Source of the DNA: Camelus dromedarius
Lineage: Eukaryota
Length of the DNA: 64,000 bases
Assembly: GCF_036321535.1 (NCBI RefSeq)
Contig: NC_087436.1
Span: 31,002,001 to 31,066,000 of the forward strand
Direction of reading: 5' to 3'
Made by a program: the position numbers and the translations under genes. The notes under the pieces are model-generated. The model did not search any database, was not told the origin of the DNA, and saw only the letters and a list, made by a program, of their open reading frames with translations. Positions 43,201 to 60,654 of this stretch are shown one piece after another (within the stretch, counting starts at the first letter, position 1; the number at the start of each line of letters is the position of its first letter).

Positions 43201-45582
43201 TAGCCTATGAAGGTACTTTACCACCTGTATTAAATAAACCTGATGTCCAGATATGCTCTAGACATCGGGACACTTGAAGGAATCAATTCAGGTAGTAGAT
43301 ATATGCCAAGGAAAACTGGGATTATAAACCAAGGGCAATTATAGAAGAAAACAGAATTAGAGGGAAAACTTCATTTCAGTAGTGAGAGGAGTTTAGGCAA
43401 AACTAGTAAAGACTGACTAAGGAATAGTTCTGAGTCTTTGTAGACTGATCTACTTTATCCCCTTTCTTCTAGGATGAAAATTTTGAGAACAGCAATCAAG
43501 GACTTGTTTGGGGCACATTAATTAGTTACCAATTTCAGCCCTTTCTCGCTCACAGGAGAGCAATAGTGAGGAGAATAGAAAAGGTATGCCATGGAGATCC
43601 TCTGTTTTTCAGCTCACGAGAATTTGGTGGACACTCAGAAGAGTCCAATGACAGCGTGAGTGGCATCTTGACAAAGGCAGCAGTAGAGCTGATGAAGGCT
43701 ACAGTATTGGAATCAGCTCTGGTGCTGGCGCAGCAGTACTCAGGAAATATCTGGGCTGGGCAATAGGGCAGGAAAAGCACCAGAAGAGGCTCACTGGTTG
43801 CATGAATGGCTGTCTTTGACAGGACACTAGGGAAAAAGACCATCATCGTAAGTAGAGCAAAATAGGGAAGGGAATAGCCTAGAGGATGAGTCCATCCACT
43901 AAGTCTTAAAGTAAATTCCTTCACCCTCAAAAAGGAATTAAAACCATGAGAGTTGTGCTAGAACTGTCCAAAGGCCACAAAGCAGCTTGGAAAATGTGAG
44001 AACATAGACTAGTATCTTTTTTCTATAAGAAAATAAAATACCATAGATTTTTATTACTTTGTAATATGTAATTAAAGCTATGAGCAGATTATCATAATCA
44101 AATGATCTGTCCCCTTGTTGTTTAGCTAACCTGTGTGCATGACTATGTTTAGTCATGTTGAAATTTCATAATTTTGTATATTTTTAGAATCTTCTGTGGA
44201 TGTTTTCTCCCTAGTAACTGTGACATGAAGTTCACAATGAAATGTGAATTCTTGGTCAAAACAAATGTCAAACATCTCTCCTCTTTTTACCAGTGCAATT
44301 ATTTGGTTCCTAAACTTGACCAAAAGGCTATTTTAAATTCTGTCTTTTGCTTCTTCTGTTCTTTCCCACTACTCTCTCTTCCCATCCTTGAGTCAGATTT
44401 CTCAGGAAAAATCAAAAAAGAATCATCAGTGTCCTAGAGTTGAAAGTGAAAAAAACTACACAGCATTAACAACAATGACTCCTAACTATGTAAAAACATA
44501 TGTGGGAGAAAGGGGGTAAAAAGTAATCATATTGTATCTGTCTTTTTTATTTTTACCTCAATGATTTTATTTTAAAAATTGTTATTAAAATCACTCCAGC
44601 TCATTGCCATTAACTCTACTTCATAGTTCAATGGTATAATTCTCCCAGTTACATTACACAATGCCAAAAGATTTTTCAAAGTGGTCTTTTAATTACAATT
44701 GCAAGCTGATACAGATGGAATTTTAGAGTTATGCAGAACTCCTTACACTTCTGTTATTATAAGTCACTCAGGGATACAGTTAGACATAGTCCCATTTCCC
44801 CCATGGGTGATAACTCTTCCTCCACATATGTATTCTGGTGAACCCATTTAAACCCAACACTCAACATGCAGAACTGCTGAACAAAATGGAACTTTAAAGG
44901 CACATTTGTGGCATCAAAACTCATTCTAATCTTTATAATGTTAATAAATTGCCTTGTTTATAATCAAGGCTGACCTTCAAAATCCAGGAGGTTGCTTGAC
45001 TGCTCAAGCTTTGGTTAGTTTCTGATGGTTGTTGACCTGATCAGTTGTCAATAGATACAGAAAGCTACAGACTGATTTTTTTTTTTTTTTCTTTAGCAGG
45101 AATCACACATGTCTGTCAAGTTAGGTCAGGTAAAGAAAGTATGGAGATTAAATAGGAAACTATTTAATGAAGTCTTTGATTTCCATTGAAAACTCAGCAG
45201 CTAGTGTCAATATTTTAATTCAAAATGAGAAGGGTAAGTATACTTAAGCTATTACACATGAACAGGACTCAACTGTATCTCCTATGCTAATTTGGTAACG
45301 AATGTAAGATATTTTCTGTAGTGCAAAGGGCCAAACAACACCTGAAGATTTTATTCATTCAACAAGCATATATTGACCACTTACTAGGTATTGACCATAC
45401 AGAGATGACAATGACATGATCCTAAATATATGTTGCTCATATTGTTTCAGCTTTCAATGTTTCACATTATTTGAGGTTTAAACTCTAACAGTTAGTGTAC
45501 TTACAGAACTAATCAAGTGAAAAATAAAGCAGTGGGTTTAGCCAGAACTTTGTAATAAAGGCACCAGAGTAGAATAGTTGTT

Positions 45583-46707
45583 TCAGTAGATATGTCTTCC
45601 CCTAAATTCACTCATTACTTGTACTGAGTGGATTTTTTTCTTTGCTGAGCCTTGTCGCAGAAATATCCCGTGGCTTCTCTCTTTTAATCAAGGATTTTTT
45701 TTGCAAGGTTCTTCATTCTCCTCATCACAACCGGGTGCCAGGGCCTAGCAGGACTTGAATTCTGATGACTCCAATTGAGGCCACATAAGACATTTTCATA
45801 GATTGCACTAGAGCATTCATTAAGTTTTTAGCTGCTTGGATGAGGGAAGTGATGCTGTCCAAAGTTGAAATGATTAGCTCTCCTACCCACATTTTGGATC
45901 TTAGCTTAACTTGACTACAGGTTTTCAGTTGATGAGAGTAGAACTTAATCTGTTCCAGCAGTCCAACAAGACCTGGTTACATGATAGGTCTAGACATGTG
46001 CCAAGTGAGGACATATGTCTTTGATACTTATTCTGATGTAATTTTAGCTGCATAGATCACATCAGTCATATGCTGTGGTGGTCCTTTGCCCGTTGTGAAG
46101 TCTGCCATCTCTATCATGATCATACACATCTTCTTGGCCAGAACAATGATATTGTTGCTTATATCATCCATATCTCAATCTCTGCACCCAGCTTACTCTT
46201 TACTTTCTTGAAATCAGCCACTTGCTCAGCACTGTTCTTCTTTTTCTGCCTCAGGTGTTTGAGTCATCTTACCTGTCAGTTTTCCCTCCAGTCTGAATGC
46301 TGTTGTGACAGTGGACCTAGCGATCTTCTTCCAGGTTAGAAACATCTTCCAGTTCCTCTGGGGTTCAAATTACCAAGACTGAACATCTGATATCATGAAA
46401 TGTATCATAGATCTACTTTGAGATATCCACAAATGGATTAGCATCAAACACACCCAGAGTTTTTACTTAAGGTTTCCAAGGCAAAATTCACCTTTGTTAC
46501 ACACTCAAGAATTACAGTACTTATAAGGATGTTAATATTTCTCATCACACCTTCAGTAAAAGTCCCTGGCTCCTAACTGTCCATTTCACCTATGACAATG
46601 TGAACTCTTGCTGCCCATACTCTGATAGCACCTGCAGAATGATCTAAATTACCAGCACCCTGATCTCTCAATGATACATTTGTTAACATCATCAAGGATA
46701 TGGCTCT
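45583..46707 (-). pseudogene. CTNNA3: Processed pseudogene of alpha-T-catenin (catenin alpha-3), C-terminal coding region, with many stops and frameshifts
   Basis: Manual minus-strand translation gives SHILDDVNKCI, LRDQGAGNLDHSAGAIRVWAARV, TPEELEDVSNLEE, EQVADFKKVKSKLGAEIEIW, NNIIVLAKKMCMIMIEMADFTTGKGP, LDSITSLIQAAKNLMNALV and AKKKIHSVQVMSEFRGRHIY* (stop at 45583-45585). The ...SEFRGR.IY C-terminus is CTNNA3-type, whereas CTNNA1/2 end SEFKAMDS(I/F). The sequence is contiguous across several exon junctions. Confidence 0.96.
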
Positions 46708-46721
46708 GAGATTTAACTTTT

Positions 46722-46859
46722 GTAACTCAGGAATAGCCAGATAAAAGAGATGCATGGGGCATGGGGCAAGGTATGAGAAAAGGGTGCAGAGCTTCTATGC
46801 CCCCTCCGGGTGCACCATTCTTCCCAGTTCTCCACGTGTTCACCATGAGGAAGCTCTGA
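46722..46859 (-). mobile_element. MER21/LTR39-like LTR segment (transcribed, R-region-like part only), same sense as the CTNNA3 retrocopy
   Basis: Minus strand agagcttcctcatggtgaacacgtggagaactgggaagaatggtgcacccggagggggcatagaagctctgcaccc...cataccttgccc...atgcatctctt..atctggctattcctgagtt matches the recalled MER21 consensus. No U3 part and no LTR 3' end are present. Confidence 0.8.
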
Positions 46860-46949
46860 TATATCTGTCTCAACATAATGAATTCCTAAGCACCAGCAAG
46901 CAATACTATGCAGTTACCTTTCAGGAACAGTAGTGACAGAGGTATGTAT

Positions 46950-48214: not shown

Positions 48215-48675
48215 CTGATATCCCAACTCTTGGCCCTTCTTAGTCCATCCACTGATGTTGTCACCAGCCCTGCAATGCTTTCACTATTTTGCCTGTTGGC
48301 CATAGCTGTGACTCAAGCCTGCATCACCTACATCACCCTTCCCTCCTGGGCTTCTCTGAGCCACAGTGTGGGAAGCCCACAGGAATGTACTTTGCTCTCA
48401 TACATGTGCCCCACCCAGAAAAGTATGGCACCATCATTGAACAATGAATGATGAGGATCAATAAATAAATATTTCCCCCTTTTTTTGCACCTGAGTGGAA
48501 ACTTCATAAGGCTTCTCACAAAACGCCAAAGGAATCTCTTCAAACCTCTCGATAACCCATCTTTGTTTGGCTTTTACTTCCTGTCTATTCCTTTCTTCTA
48601 CTTCCTGGATGCTGTCTGCAAATAAAAACAAGTCTGCTTCAGTTTTTGCTTTAGGGGAAACCCAAAACTAAGATA
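48215..48675 (+). mobile_element. ERVL LTR16-family solo LTR
   Basis: caaataaa poly(A) signal and terminal ttttgctttaggggaaacccaaaactaagata. Confidence 0.7.
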
Positions 48676-53784: not shown

Positions 53785-54345
53785 AGGGAGAGACGAGGCC
53801 AAGATGGCAGAGTAGAAGGACGCTCGTAGCTCACCCTCTCCCACAGATACATCAAGACTCACAACCACGGACCCACTCAGCCAACCAGAGCACCTGCAGA
53901 ACTCCAACAGAACATTGTCCTCTTTAAACGACAAAGACGCCAAAAATCTGGTAGGAGAAAAGAAAAAAAAAGAAAGACGAAAAGGCGAAACAGTGCAGGA
54001 CCGGTCCCGCGGGGAGGGACCGGCAAAGGAGGACTGGCAATCGTTCGCTGGGTCTCCCCTCTCCATCGGAGAGGCCAGCGGGACGGAGGGGGAGCCTCCG
54101 AGGTTCGGATCTGCAGGGAGCAGCCCTTGACTGACAGAACTAAGTTAAATGGGCACAGAGGGTCCCTGAGACACCCAGCCCGAGACCCACACTGTGCTGG
54201 GAGGGGGCGCGATCTGCTTGCCAACAGGCACTGGGAGCAGCACAGACGACGGCGCCAACGGAGGCGCCTCTGGAAACAGCAAGCTGAGTTCCCGAAACAC
54301 GGCGAAGACAGAAAGACTTATTAAGAGCACACAGTCTCCAGGAGA
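53785..54345 (+). promoter_or_regulatory. L1 internal promoter (CpG-rich 5'UTR) with YY1 motif CAAGATGGC at 53800-53808
   Basis: The only long CpG-rich stretch in the window. The YY1 core near the element 5' end is a known L1 feature. Confidence 0.8.
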
Positions 54346-54361
54346 ACACCCCCTCCCCCCC

Positions 54362-55090
54362 TTTTTTTTAATCTGTTTTTACCTGTTGTATTTTCTATTA
54401 CCTTTTTAATTTTTACTTTTTAAACAATTATATATCTCCCAGTTTTAAGCCCTTTTAAATTTTAATATTATTATTTTTAAAAATCATGTCATTTTTATCT
54501 CTCTTGGTTTTGATCTCCTGTTATTGACTACACACAGGTTTCAAATACATTTTTTCCCTCCTTTCTCCTTTTTCAAAGGTTTTTAAGAGACGTCTCAACC
54601 CGATTGCTATTCTGCTTCAACTTGCTCTTCAATTATTCATTATACACTGTTTTCAAACCCTTTTTTCCTCCCCTTTTTCAAAATTCTCTTTATCATATCT
54701 TTTTTATCTGTTCTATTTTTTATTACCTTTTTAATTTCTATTTTCCAAACAATTGTATATGCTTCTAGTTTTAATTCCTTCTTAAATTTTTCTTTCTAAA
54801 CAACTGTATATGCTTCTAGTTTTAATTCCTTTTAACTTTTTCTTTTAAAATAGTTATATTATTATTTTTTTAAAAATCCACCTGATTTCATTTTCATTTC
54901 TTTTGGATTTGATATTCTGTTATTGATTATAAAAAGGTTTCAAGTATCATTTTTTGATTTTTTTCCTTTTTTTAAGGGTTTTTAAAAAGATCTCAACTCG
55001 AATGCTAGTCTGATTCAAATTGTGCTTCTATAATTGATTATACACTGTTTTCAAACCTTTTTTTCTCCCTTCTTTTAAAATTCTCTTTCT
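54362..55090 (+). repeat. T-rich tandem duplication inside the L1 5'UTR (two units, about 54362-54690 and 54698-55090), with a nested ~51-bp duplication in unit 2
   Basis: Both units contain tattacctttttaattt, ctgttattga, aggtttcaa, tctcaac.cga.tgcta.tctg and attatacactgttttcaaacc...aaaattctcttt. aaacaa(t/c)tgtatatgcttctagttttaattcctt occurs at about 54747 and 54798. Confidence 0.9.
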
Positions 55091-55217
55091 CTCTCCCTCC
55101 TTTTTTTTTATTTTTTAAGTTTTATTCCTACATAGGCATTAGATAGATAAATAAATAAACTCCTTTAAGGACCACAATAGATAACTGATACTCCTTAAGC
55201 CACAGTGCCAGAGAGAT

Positions 55218-56117
55218 ATGAACAAGATGAAGAAGCAGAGAAACCATTCCCAATTAAAAGAAGAAGAGAAATCCCCTGAAAGAATGATCAATGAAATAGA
55301 CATCAATAGCCTACTAGATCAAGATTTCAAAAAAGGAGTTATCAAAGTACTGAATAAACTAAAAGAGATAGTGTTTAGAGATATAAAATATGTCAAAAAT
55401 GAAATAGAAGCTATAAAGAAGAGCCAAGTAGAATTGATAAACTCACTGGCTGAGATGAGAATGGACCTAAAGGCTGTGCAAAGCAGACTAGATAATGCAG
55501 AGGAACGAATTAGTGACCTAGAAGACAGGACAACAGAAAGCACCCAATCAGAACAACTGCAAGATAAACAAATAAAAACAAATGAAAGCAACATAAGGGA
55601 CCTATGGGATAATATAAAGTGTGCCAATCTTCGCATAATAGGGGTCCCAGAACGGGAAGAATGATCAAAGGGCATTGAAAAGGTTTTTGAAGAATTCATG
55701 ACTGAAAACTTCCCAAACTTAAAGAAAAAATCAGATATCCAAGTACAGGAAGAAAGGGTCCCAAACAGGAAGAACGCAAACAGATACACACCAAGACATA
55801 TCATAATCAAGATGGCCAGAGTCAAGGATAAAGAAATGATCCTAAAGGCAGCAAGAGAAAAGCAAAGAGTGAGTTACAAGGGAACCCCCATAAGGCTCTC
55901 AGCTGATTTCTCTGCACAAACACTACAGGCCAGAAGGGAGTGGCAAGATATATTCAAAGCCCTGAATGAAAAAAAGATGCAGCCTAGGATACTTTATCCA
56001 GCAAGGCTATCCTTTAGGATAGAAGGAGACATAAAGAATTTCACAGACAAGAAAAAGCTACAAGAGTTTAGCAACACTAAACCCATGCTAAAAGAAATAT
56101 TGAAAGGTCTACTCTAA
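55218..56117 (+). pseudogene. ORF1: L1 ORF1p (coiled coil, RRM, CTD), one in-frame stop at 55662-55664
   Basis: ORFs 55218-55664 and 55698-56117 are in the same frame. Motifs NLRIIGVPE, ENFPNL, TPRHIIIKM, PIRLSADFS, YPARLSF. Confidence 0.95.
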
Positions 56118-56495
56118 ATAGAAAAAGCAGCAGGATGCTATAGAAATGAGAAACTCATAGCTGGAAAGGTGATAACTCATGAATTACAAATAAAATAAAC
56201 ATGAAATTGTAAAAGAAGACATCTAAATCATTAAGAGTGGGAGAGGGAAGCAAGAAAATATAGAGTATTTTTTTTCTTTGTTTTTAAAATTTTTTGTTTT
56301 CAGTAGGATGGGTTCGAGATATAGTAATGGGCTAACAGACTTACAGAAAAGGGTAACCACATGCCAAAAACTTACAAGGGAGTCACAAAAACCAAATAAA
56401 ATCCATGATAATACAAAGGAAAATTACCAAACCACAAAAGGAAGAAGAAAGGAACAAAGAGGAAATACCAAATCAACGGCAAAGATAAGTTCAAA

Positions 56496-59400
56496 ATGGC
56501 AATAAACACACATCTATCATTAATTACTGTAAATGTTAATGTACTAAATGCTCCAGTCAAAAGACACAGAGTGGCAGACTGGATAATAAAGCAAGAACCT
56601 TCAATATGCTGCATACAAGAGACCCACTTTAGGGAGAAGGACACATATAGATTGAGAGTAAAAGGATGGAAAAGGATATTCCATGCAAATGGAAAAGCCA
56701 AAATAGCAGGTGTTGCAGTACTGATTTCAGACAAAATAGACTTTAAAACAAAGGCCATAAAGAAAGATAAAGAAGGACATTTTATAATGATTAAAGGAGT
56801 GATACAAGATGAGGATATTACACTCGTTAATATATATGCACCCAATATAGGAGCACCTAAGTACATAAAACAATTACTAACAGAGATAAAGGGGGATATT
56901 GATGGGAATACAATCACAGTTGGAGATTTTAACACCGCATTAATATCACTAGACAGATCTTCCAGACAGAAAATAAATAAGGCAACAGAGAAATTAAATA
57001 ATACAATAGAAAAATTAGATTTGGTGGATATTTTCAGAGCATTACACCCCCCAAAATAGGATATACATTCTTTTCAAATGCACATGGAACATTTTCAAGG
57101 ATTGGTCATGTACTTGGGCACCAAAGAAACCTCAACAATTTTAAGAAGATAGAAATTATCTCAAGCATCTTTACTGACCACAATGCCATGAAACTAGAAA
57201 TCAACAACAGAAAAACAAAGGAGAAAAAAAGGAAAGCATGGAGATTAAACAATATGTTATTTAAAAACAATGGGTCAATGAGGAAATCAAAGCTGAAATT
57301 AAAAAATATCTTGAGACAAATGACAATGAAAGCACAACCACACAAATTTATGGGACACAGCAAAGGTAGTGCTAAGACGGAAGTTTACAGCGATACAAGC
57401 CGTCCTCAAAAAAGAAGAACAATCTCAAATAAATAATTTAACCCACCAACTGAATGAACTAGAAAAAGAAGAGCAAAAATCTCCAAAAGGCATCAGAAGG
57501 AGGGAAATTATAAAGATTAGGGAGGAAATAAATAAAATAGAGGTTAACAAGGTCATAGAAAAAAATCAACCAAACCAAAAGCTGGCTTTTTGAAAAAGTA
57601 AATAAAATCGAGAAACCTCTGGCAAAACTCACAAAGAAGAAAAAAGAGAGAGCATAAATTAGCAAAATAAGAAAGGAAAATGGACAAATTACAACAAATA
57701 CAATAGAAATACAGACTATCATATGAGAATATTGTGAAAACCTATATGGAACCAAACTGGATAACCTAGAGGAGATGGACAAGTTTCTGGAAACATACTG
57801 TCCACCAAGACTGAATCAAGAGGAAACTGACCACTTGAACAAACCAATCACTAGAAACGAAATCGAAATAGGAATAAAAAAACCTCCCTACAAACAAAAG
57901 TCCAGGACCGGGCAGCTTCACCAGGGAATTCTACCAAACATACAAAAAAGAACTCATACCAGTCCTTCTCAAACTCTTCCAGAAGATTGAAAAGGAGGGA
58001 ATACTCCCAAACTCATTCTATGAAGCCACCATCACCCTGATACCAAAACCAGGCAAAGATACTACCAAAAAAGAGAATTATAGACCAATATCACTGATGA
58101 ACATATCCGCCAAAATCCTCACCAAAATATTAGCAAATAGAATCCAACAACACATAAAAAAGATTATACATCATGACCAAGTGGAGTTCATCCCAGGGAC
58201 AAAAGGGTGGTTCAACATATGCAAATCAATCAATGTAGTACATCACATCAACAAGAGAAAGGACAAAAACCACATGATCATCTCAATCGATGCAGAAAAA
58301 GCATTTGATAAAATTCAACACCCATTTATGATAAAAACTCTCACCAAAGTGGGTATAGAGGGAACATATGTCAACATCATAAAAGCTATATATGACAAAC
58401 CTACAGCCAGCATAGTACTCAACGGTGAAAAACTCAACAGCTTCCCACTAAAATCTGGGACAAGACAAGGATGCCCACTATCACCAATTCTATTCAACAT
58501 AGTCTTGGAAGTCCTAGCCACAGCAATCAGACAAGAGAGAGAAATAAAAGGGATCCAAACTGGAAAAGAAGAGGTAAAAGTGTCACTATAAGCTGACAAC
58601 ATGTTACTATATATAGGAAACCCTAAAAGGTCCTAAAAACCCTAAAAACACAAAAACTTCTAGAGCTGATCGAAGAATTCAGGAAGGTAGCAGGTTACAA
58701 GATTAACGTTCAAAAATCAGTTGCATTTCTTTACACTAACAATGGATCAACAGAAAAAGAAAGTAAAGAAACAATCCCCTTTAAAATAGCACCCTAAGTA
58801 ATAAAATACCTAGGAATAAACCTAATCAAGGAGGTGAAAGAATTATACACAGAAACTATAAACCACTGATGAAGGAAATTAAAGAAGACTTTAAAAAATG
58901 GAAAGATAGCCCATGCTCTTGGATTGGAAGAATCAATATTGTTAAAATGGTCACACTGCCCAAGGCAATCTACAGATTTCATGCAATCCCTATCCAATTA
59001 CCCAGGACATATTTCACAGAACTAGAACAAATCTAATAAAATTTATATGGAACCATCAAAGATCTAGAATTGCCAAAGCATTACTGAAGAGAAAGAAAGA
59101 GGCTGGAGGAATAACTCTCCCAGACTTCAGACAATACTATAGAGCTACAGTCATCAAGACAGCATGGTACTGGTACAAAAACAGACATATAGACCAATGG
59201 AACAGAATAGAGAGCCCAGAAATGAACCCACAAACTTTTGGTCAACTAATCTTCGACAAAGGAGGCAAGAATACACAATAGAATAAAGACAGTCTCTTCA
59301 GCAAATGGTATTGGGAAAAATGGACAGCAGCATGTAAAACAATGAAGCTAGAACACTCCCTTACACCATACACAAAATCAACTCAAAATGGATCAAAGAC

Positions 59401-60183
59401 TTAAACATAAGACAAGATACAATAAACTTCCTAGAGGAAAATATAGGCAAAACATTATCTCACATATATCTCAAAAATTTTCTCCTAGAAGAAATAAAAG
59501 CAAGAATAAACAAATGGGAGCTAATGAAACTTACAAGCTTCTGTACAGCAAAGGAAACCAAAAGTAAAACAAAAAGACAACCTACGGAATGGGAAAAAAA
59601 TTTTTGCAAGTGAAACCGACAAAGGCTTGATCTCCAGAATATATAAGCAGCTCATACGACTCAATAAGAAAAAAATAAACCCAATCCAAAAATGCGCAGA
59701 AGACCTAAACAAGCAATTCTCCAAGGAAGACATACAAATGATCAACAGACACATGAAAAAATGCTAAGTATCACTAATTATCAGAGAAACGCAAATCAAA
59801 ACTACAATGAGGTATCACCTCACACCAGTCAGAATGGCCATCATTCAAAAATCCACAAATGACAAATGCTGGAGAGGCTGTGGAGATAGGGGAACCCTCC
59901 TACACTGCTGGTGGGAATGTAGTTTGGTGCAGCCACTGTGGAAAACAGTAAGGAGATTCCTCAAAAGACTAAGAATAGACTTACCGTATGACCCAGGAAT
60001 CCTTCTCCTGGGCCTATATCCAGAAGGAACCCTACTTCAGGATGACACCTGCACCCCAATGTTCATAGCAGCACTATTTACAATAGCCAAGACATGGTAA
60101 CAGCCTAAATGTCCATCAACAGATGACTGGATAAAGAAGAAGTGGTATATTTATACAATGGAATACTACTCAGCCATAAAAAC
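56496..60183 (+). pseudogene. ORF2: L1 ORF2p (APE endonuclease, reverse transcriptase, CCHC domain), multiply disrupted and lacking the last codons
   Basis: EN motifs ICCIQETH, NIYAPN, VGDFN; RT motifs [31 protein letters not shown] reads taa-gct-gac-aac (*ADN) at 58589-58600; CWRGC...HCWWEC near 59870. Confidence 0.96.
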
Positions 60184-60654
60184 CAAATTATATTACAAAT
60201 TATATTTTGTATGTCACCTTACTATCAGAACACTAACCTCCGACTTCTGTTTTTAGACTACATACTGGCAGTTAGGTACTGGATTCAGGCTGACTGTAGG
60301 AAACGGCAGGAGTGGGAGAGGGGCTTCCTCTCAGCCTTACCTGTAAGTCAACATGTGGTAAAAGTATCCTTTGGAAAAACGCATGTCTTCTCATAAAATA
60401 AAGAATATAGAATAAAAATAAAGAATTCTCTTATAAAGTAAAGAATAGTTTGAGTGTTGCTTTCAGAAAATAAAAAAACAAAACAAAACAAAAAACCTTA
60501 ATCCTCACCAAGTAGAGGGGGAAAAAAGAGCTTAGATTCTAAGACCAACTGTAATCTGTTAGTTATATGGAAAAAGTTAGAAAGAAGAGAGAACTCTAGT
60601 TCAAAAATTAAAACCAAAACTATTCATTGGTGGTGTACTATTCTTAGGATTCCA

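Follow-up and report, generated by a model that had tools for sequence, protein, structure and literature searches.

The processed pseudogenes that LINE-1 (L1) leaves in genomes were reportedly put forward by Shemesh et al. in 2006 (PNAS 103:1364) as fossils of past transcripts. Here we describe such a fossil in the dromedary, Camelus dromedarius, located in a 64,000-nucleotide stretch of contig NC_087436.1 (C1 below; positions 31,002,001 to 31,066,000 of the forward strand), the whole of which we call the window. It preserves a transcript of CTNNA3, the gene of catenin alpha-3 (alphaT-catenin), headed by a piece of a long terminal repeat (LTR). Like the pseudogene fossils of Shemesh et al., it is an intron-free, polyadenylated copy flanked by a target-site duplication and freezing the exon structure of what we take to be a germline messenger RNA (mRNA); unlike them, it has frozen an alternative first exon of transposon origin, and the LTR that gave rise to this exon is identifiable, with its splice donor, in an intron of the parental gene.

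LTRs are well documented as alternative promoters that bring first exons with them (PMC5538554; PMC4419796). In oocytes and zygotes, LTRs of the ERVL/MaLR group serve as promoters and supply first exons (Franke et al. 2017, PMC5538554), and the same paper mentions a Dicer1 form of the oocyte driven by an intronic LTR. The CTNNA3 case resembles the chimeras described there in that a sense LTR within a gene would contribute an exon close to the promoter, its donor being spliced to a normal acceptor downstream, with an N-terminally shortened product expected. It differs from them in that activity is read from a DNA fossil and not from RNA, in that the LTR family is much older, its copies being ~70-74% alike, and in the relation of the two elements: PMC5538554 describes LTRs re-using pseudogenes, whereas here a pseudogene carries an LTR exon.

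Another LTR, MER21A, is the placental promoter of CYP19A1 (PMC4419796), and it was by analogy with this tissue-specific alternative promoter that the initial annotation of the window, made from its letters alone, placed the start of transcription. As a table in PMC4419796 lists MER21A as primate-specific, the LTR studied here is not MER21A itself and bears at most a family resemblance to it. Closer to the gene in question, mouse alphaT-catenin is reported to have a truncated, testis-restricted isoform that an alternative promoter gives rise to (Goossens et al. 2007, FASEB J 21:647), which likewise is an N-terminally shortened CTNNA3 product of an internal promoter in an organ that bears the germline. 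We found no literature on an LTR-driven CTNNA3 transcript or on retrocopies with LTR first exons, which is not proof of absence. The case described below brings together two phenomena already known, the LTR-linked chimeric transcript and the processed pseudogene, and it involves no new mechanism.

An intron-free copy of CTNNA3 exons 12-18

Positions 44533-46870 of the window (minus strand, contig C1) hold an intron-free retrocopy of CTNNA3 exons 12-18, the parts of which are collected in Table 1. Its coding part, which opens at 46707 with (Q)SHILDDVNKC and ends in a TGA stop at 45585-45583, matches seven separate stretches on the plus strand of contig C8, which keep its order over a distance of 355 kb and each have AG/GT borders. 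The seven parental exons are contiguous in the window, their introns having been removed exactly at the parental splice sites. At the other end, window 45862-44567 aligns to C8:36681630-36682945, and the parental homology ceases 10 nt past AATAAA, where an A-rich tract begins. The target-site duplication, 11 bp long and 10/11 identical, adjoins both ends of the insert exactly and encloses the LTR-derived leader. When the junction zones, 61 nt at each end, were shuffled 2000 times, an 11-mer repeat with at most one mismatch arose between them 46 times, a count that admits such a repeat anywhere in the zones, the real one sitting exactly at both ends.

The lack of introns, a poly(A) tract and a target duplication are hallmarks of L1-mediated retroposition (PMC5470649), and 44533-46870 is an L1-type processed pseudogene of CTNNA3, the copying machinery having presumably been that of L1. 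The initial annotation had seen here direct repeats, an LTR piece, a CTNNA3 coding part, an untranslated region (UTR), AATAAA and a decayed A tract, and all of these were found. It was right about the LTR origin of the piece and not about its length, since the ~140 nt that it gave are part of a leader of 152 nt in all, and the "14-nt linker" that it placed between LTR and coding sequence is really 16 nt long (46723-46708) and colinear with the parental LTR at 13/16 positions.

Table 1. Parts of the CTNNA3 retrocopy, with positions in the window
Feature	Position	Strand	Basis
5' target-site duplication copy AGACAGATATA	46860-46870	minus	matches 3' copy 10/11
LTR-derived leader, 152 nt, R-like part of solo LTR	46708-46859	minus	homology to intron-11 LTR of parental CTNNA3
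CTNNA3 exons 12-18, residues ~511-895, no introns, disabled	45583-46707	minus	seven exon matches, C8:36326160-36681917
Retrocopy 3'UTR, ~1.03 kb	44555-45582	minus	colinear with parental last exon; AATAAA at 44571-44566
Decayed poly(A) tail, 11 nt (10 A + 1 T)	44544-44554	minus	parental locus without tract here
3' target-site duplication copy AGACAGATACA	44533-44543	minus	matches 5' copy 10/11

When full-length cetacean catenin alpha-3 was mapped on the assembly, seventeen coding exon matches were obtained (C8:35403164-36681914), of which the 11th is the first that the retrocopy retains. In human CTNNA3 transcripts the first exon is non-coding and residue 596 lies in exon 13 (PMC4104741); as this residue falls in the exon directly following the first retained one, the latter is exon 12, a numbering that assumes an exon structure as in human CTNNA3. 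The coding sequence of the retrocopy starts exactly at the acceptor of this exon (...ttacttacag/AGAGCC), which is the exon 11/12 boundary named by the initial annotation. All the named proteins among the best 120 matches to the exon-12 translation are catenin alpha-3, the others being unnamed or hypothetical, and against PDB it matches the M-domain of alpha-catenins. Spliced together, the seven parental exons give an open tail of 384 residues, 376 of them identical to cetacean catenin alpha-3. CTNNA1 and CTNNA2 were considered as parents and rejected, the paralog loci on C3 and C33 matching far less well.

Splicing of an intron-11 LTR to exon 12

We searched the assembly with the leader and the 5' repeat and obtained, in this order, the window itself, a second copy of the retrocopy on contig C22, and C8:36324216-36324343 (plus strand; 80% identity, 121 bits), while the 37 other scored members of the LTR family reached at most 104 bits. 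Within CTNNA3 the C8 match falls in intron 11 (~79 kb), on the gene strand, with its end 1.8 kb before exon 12, so that the best match outside the window and its duplicate is the same-strand intronic LTR that the initial annotation had led us to expect. This parental LTR spans ~870 bp (about C8:36323894-36324764, plus strand), with a GTAAGT donor at 36324345, and is followed by the exon-12 acceptor at 36326160, 1815 nt from the donor. The leader is 79% identical to C8:36324201-36324344, the match running through the 16-nt "linker", and its homology stops precisely at the GTAAGT of the parental LTR: the retrocopy junction reads ...aaatctc/AGAGCC and the parental LTR ...aattctg/GTAAGT. The GT anticipated directly past the end of homology is in place, and donor and acceptor both match the retrocopy junction, as the initial annotation had proposed in deriving the transcript from an intronic LTR of the parental gene spliced to exon 12.

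A 14-nt deletion ties the leader to this one LTR copy, as it is common to the parental LTR and the retrocopy, while the 14 nt are kept in all ten other family copies examined. The deletion takes out the poly(A)-signal segment, and the parental LTR has no AATAAA or ATTAAA from the leader start to the donor. The intron-11 LTR is identified as the source of the leader by this private deletion together with its position and the exact junction. A shorter probe told less: a 23-nt "linker" motif gave 12 genomic matches with at most 3 mismatches, as did its reversed control (12), and alone does not discriminate. It is exact in the window and C22 copies and has 2 mismatches in the parental LTR and in two other loci, neither of which is among the 40 scored matches of the leader.

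Taken together, these borders demonstrate, at the level of genomic DNA, donor-to-acceptor splicing of the intron-11 LTR to CTNNA3 exon 12, and by the same evidence the retrocopy is a record of an ancient, LTR-linked alternative CTNNA3 transcript.

Start of the chimeric transcript

Used as query, a 1.7-kb stretch containing the parental match delimited a family homology of ~870 bp, with other copies 68-74% identical and at least 3557 first-look candidates within the genome. The family layout was taken from an alignment of the parental LTR, ten other copies and the retrocopy leader, no consensus being built. In this alignment the leader is an internal piece, at about positions 300-450 of the ~870 bp. 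In 8/10 other copies, a CATAAAA-type (CATRAA) box precedes by 26 nt the base with which the leader begins after the duplication, and an exact CCAAT stands ~45 nt further upstream of the box in five of the ten and in the parental LTR. AATAAA or ATTAAA occurs at +132 to +143 (6/10 copies) and GTAAGT at +150 to +160 (7/10), an order that we read as the end of U3, R, the poly(A) signal and the start of U5.

A TATA-directed start is expected 25-30 nt downstream of the box. The leader begins where such a start is expected, which favours initiation in the LTR, and we consider that transcription probably began inside the intron-11 LTR. A sense solo LTR of an old, abundant family would have come to lie in intron 11 of CTNNA3, where the 14-nt deletion would have removed its poly(A) signal and left the adjoining GTAAGT; with the signal lost and the donor kept, transcripts could reach the donor instead of being polyadenylated. 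Starting at the LTR promoter (CCAAT and CATAAAA-type box), ~25-30 nt downstream, they would have run for ~150 nt, been spliced from GTAAGT to the exon-12 acceptor and continued through exons 13-18 to the normal polyadenylation site. One such mRNA, in germline or early-embryo cells, would then have been reverse-transcribed and inserted on another chromosome by the L1 machinery, and the retrocopy would have decayed neutrally from the start, a later segmental duplication carrying it to C22. We infer from the existence of the retrocopy that the chimeric transcript was expressed in the germline, and take the retrocopy to be a full-length copy of it. Of 24 sequencing runs that turned up for the parental stretch from the LTR to exon 12, four RNA-seq runs from a single study contained 14-32% of the words sampled, shares that do not count as evidence of expression. 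Of the LTR-promoted transcript of the initial annotation, the splice to exon 12 is borne out and the promoter role is what we infer. Its placing of the start just past the TATA box agrees with the 26 nt seen in the family; in the present parental LTR the distance is longer, as follows.

Several observations weigh against this account. In the present parental LTR, the stretch from the TATA-like box to the leader start is lengthened by a 16-nt A-rich expansion that none of the ten other copies has, and the box lies 42 nt, not 26 nt, from that start; the expansion may be older or younger than the retrocopy, and it affects the predicted start position. The 5' duplication copy matches the corresponding 11 nt of the parental LTR at 7/11 positions (estimated chance probability ~0.02), and this likeness leaves an uncertainty of up to 11 nt in the true 5' end of the complementary DNA (cDNA), which may have extended that much further and been joined by microhomology. 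An end 11 nt further upstream, counting the A-rich expansion, is again ~30 nt from the box. The parental LTR also holds a pyrimidine-rich run with AG, a candidate acceptor, ~110 nt upstream of the leader start. The last base of the leader is c in the window and C22 copies and g in the parental LTR, and the 80% identity of the parental LTR is barely above that of other family copies (at most 79%). The insertion site reads TG/AGAC on the insert strand, only a partial match to the L1 endonuclease target TT/AAAA. Finally, no annotated mammalian CTNNA3 isoform starting at exon 12 was found among the best 120 of 834 short matches and nine short cluster members fetched (at most 40 cluster members read, 15 listed per cluster), a sample that says nothing on the absence of such an isoform.

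The candidate acceptor and the 7/11 likeness lend themselves to an alternative that we hold to be unlikely, though it survives better than the others: the LTR piece would be a cryptic or cassette exon, or an unspliced stretch, of a transcript begun further upstream, at the canonical promoter or in intron 11, with the same splice from donor to exon 12 and with truncation of the copy at its 5' end. L1-made copies are mostly 5'-truncated (PMC5470649), the AG could act as acceptor, and the likeness of the duplication to the LTR suggests a cDNA that extended further upstream. Truncation, however, would by coincidence have had to stop no more than a few nt from the predicted start, 26 nt past the TATA-like box of 8/10 copies, a target of ~10 nt within a putative exon of ~260 nt. 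The purine-rich stretch directly upstream of the leader in the present parent is moreover a poor acceptor context.

Far less probable is an LTR piece that had nothing to do with CTNNA3 splicing. L1 reverse transcription is known to yield chimeras by template switching, and a switch to some other LTR RNA, or else an LTR insertion already present at the target or arriving later, could be suspected from a piece without U3, 3' end or duplication of its own. Such an origin would leave to chance a junction that falls exactly on the GTAAGT donor and the exon-12 acceptor of one locus, a leader with the private 14-nt deletion of the intron-11 LTR, and, in a genome of 2.3 Gb, a same-strand source copy no more than ~2 kb away from the exon; the target duplication, too, encloses the leader. 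On these sequence grounds, template switching and unrelated LTR insertion can be regarded as effectively excluded.

Duplication, decay and coding potential

The C22 copy is 87-89% identical to the window copy and has the same leader and the same junction. Homology between the two is unbroken from window position 48391, across the 5' junction (1.5 kb of flank), to 45588, and resumes at 43811, the C22 copy having lost the counterpart of 45587-43812 (3'UTR, tail, 3' repeat and 0.7 kb of flank). Colinear blocks of 85-89% identity link window 6545-64000 to C22:8606040-8629447, and the duplication extends past the end of the window. In-frame stops at codons 558 and 628 are common to both copies. The shared leader and junction could be put down to two separate retropositions of a recurrent LTR-exon 12 mRNA, and would then speak for an isoform both abundant and long-lived, but such an origin is hardly credible against flank homology across the 5' junction and beyond the 3' end and two common stops, and the C22 copy, tried as an independent retrocopy, is refuted as such by its flanks and is a segmental duplicate.

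Two private changes set the window copy apart from both the C22 duplicate and the parent: 7 nt of the leader are duplicated (46771-46777), and in exon 12 a 5-nt deletion (46673/46672) shifts the frame. Elsewhere in the duplicated region, the C22 stretch examined has nothing corresponding to window 13871-40122 (26 kb). At 53790-60197 (plus strand) lies a long LINE-1, in which open frames of 150-237 codons resemble ORF1 and reverse transcriptase, and as it fills a gap in the C1/C22 alignment it was inserted after the duplication.

Compared with the parent, the coding part of the retrocopy has a p-distance of 0.147 (0.123, 0.123 and 0.196 at codon positions 1, 2 and 3) and carries 11 deletions, 3 insertions and 5 in-frame stops. 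Codon positions 1 and 2 have changed equally, and therefore no purifying selection ever acted on the retrocopy, which by this measure was dead from the start. The leader differs from the parental LTR by p 0.21 (Kimura two-parameter distance, K2P, 0.25) and the 3'UTR from its parent by p 0.218 (K2P 0.26). These two diverge more (~0.21-0.22) than the coding part because they are neutral on both sides, whereas coding sequence was free to change only in the copy. With p about 0.10 between the window and C22 copies, the distances fit a single history, in which the LTR insertion would have been followed by the retrocopy (~0.12 substitutions per site per lineage) and then by the duplication (~0.05). 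If neutral change in mammals runs at 1-2.2 x 10^-9 per site per year, the retrocopy would very roughly be 55-125 million years old and the duplication 25-50 million.

As for the protein that such a transcript could encode, the chimeric mRNA of the present parent would have a leader of 155 nt with four ATGs, opening short frames of 14-29 codons, and exon 12 adds three out-of-frame ATGs before the first in the catenin frame, the Met of MDSYEPG, which opens a frame of 341 residues. Efficient translation is doubtful, since seven ATGs precede this frame, and the transcript may have been a by-product. The 341-residue product would keep the actin-binding domain and, ahead of it, a portion of the M3 bundle, and would lack the beta-catenin-binding N-domain, a content taken from alignment to alphaE-catenin structures and from known domain limits. 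This agrees with the isoform predicted by the initial annotation, without the beta-catenin-binding N-terminus and with the actin-binding domain kept.

The short catenin alpha-3 forms listed are gene fragments, C-terminally truncated forms and N-truncated forms from exon 10 or 11. Short proteins containing exon 12 were considered as LTR fusions and rejected, being read-throughs of genomic intron sequence. The predicted N-truncated forms include one of 461 aa that starts with MSTNEDG in exon 10 (dog and a bat) and one of 417 aa that starts with MEMYK in exon 11 (tiger and lion). These exon-10 and exon-11 isoforms hint at other internal start sites in the very large CTNNA3 gene.

A more far-reaching possibility, which we judge quite improbable, is that CTNNA3 has in the intron-11 LTR a long-lived germline promoter, active today in some mammals and yielding a 341-residue alphaT-catenin from MDSYEPG. 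If this were true, such a form would consist of the rear portion of the M3 bundle and the actin-binding domain, without the parts that bind beta-catenin, vinculin or plakophilin; it would have a function independent of cadherins, like that reported for the mouse testis isoform; and the retrocopy would record the activity of that promoter tens of millions of years ago.

To summarize, a dead retrocopy fixes an ancient LTR-to-exon splice to the nucleotide, with donor and acceptor both surviving in the living gene, and it sets a dated lower bound for germline transcription of the intron-11 LTR. The loss of its own poly(A) signal, with the adjacent donor kept, is a suggested reason why this LTR copy fed into CTNNA3. 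The intron-11 LTR is also a candidate promoter for an N-truncated alphaT-catenin, in a gene with a reported testis-restricted truncated isoform in mouse (Goossens et al. 2007).

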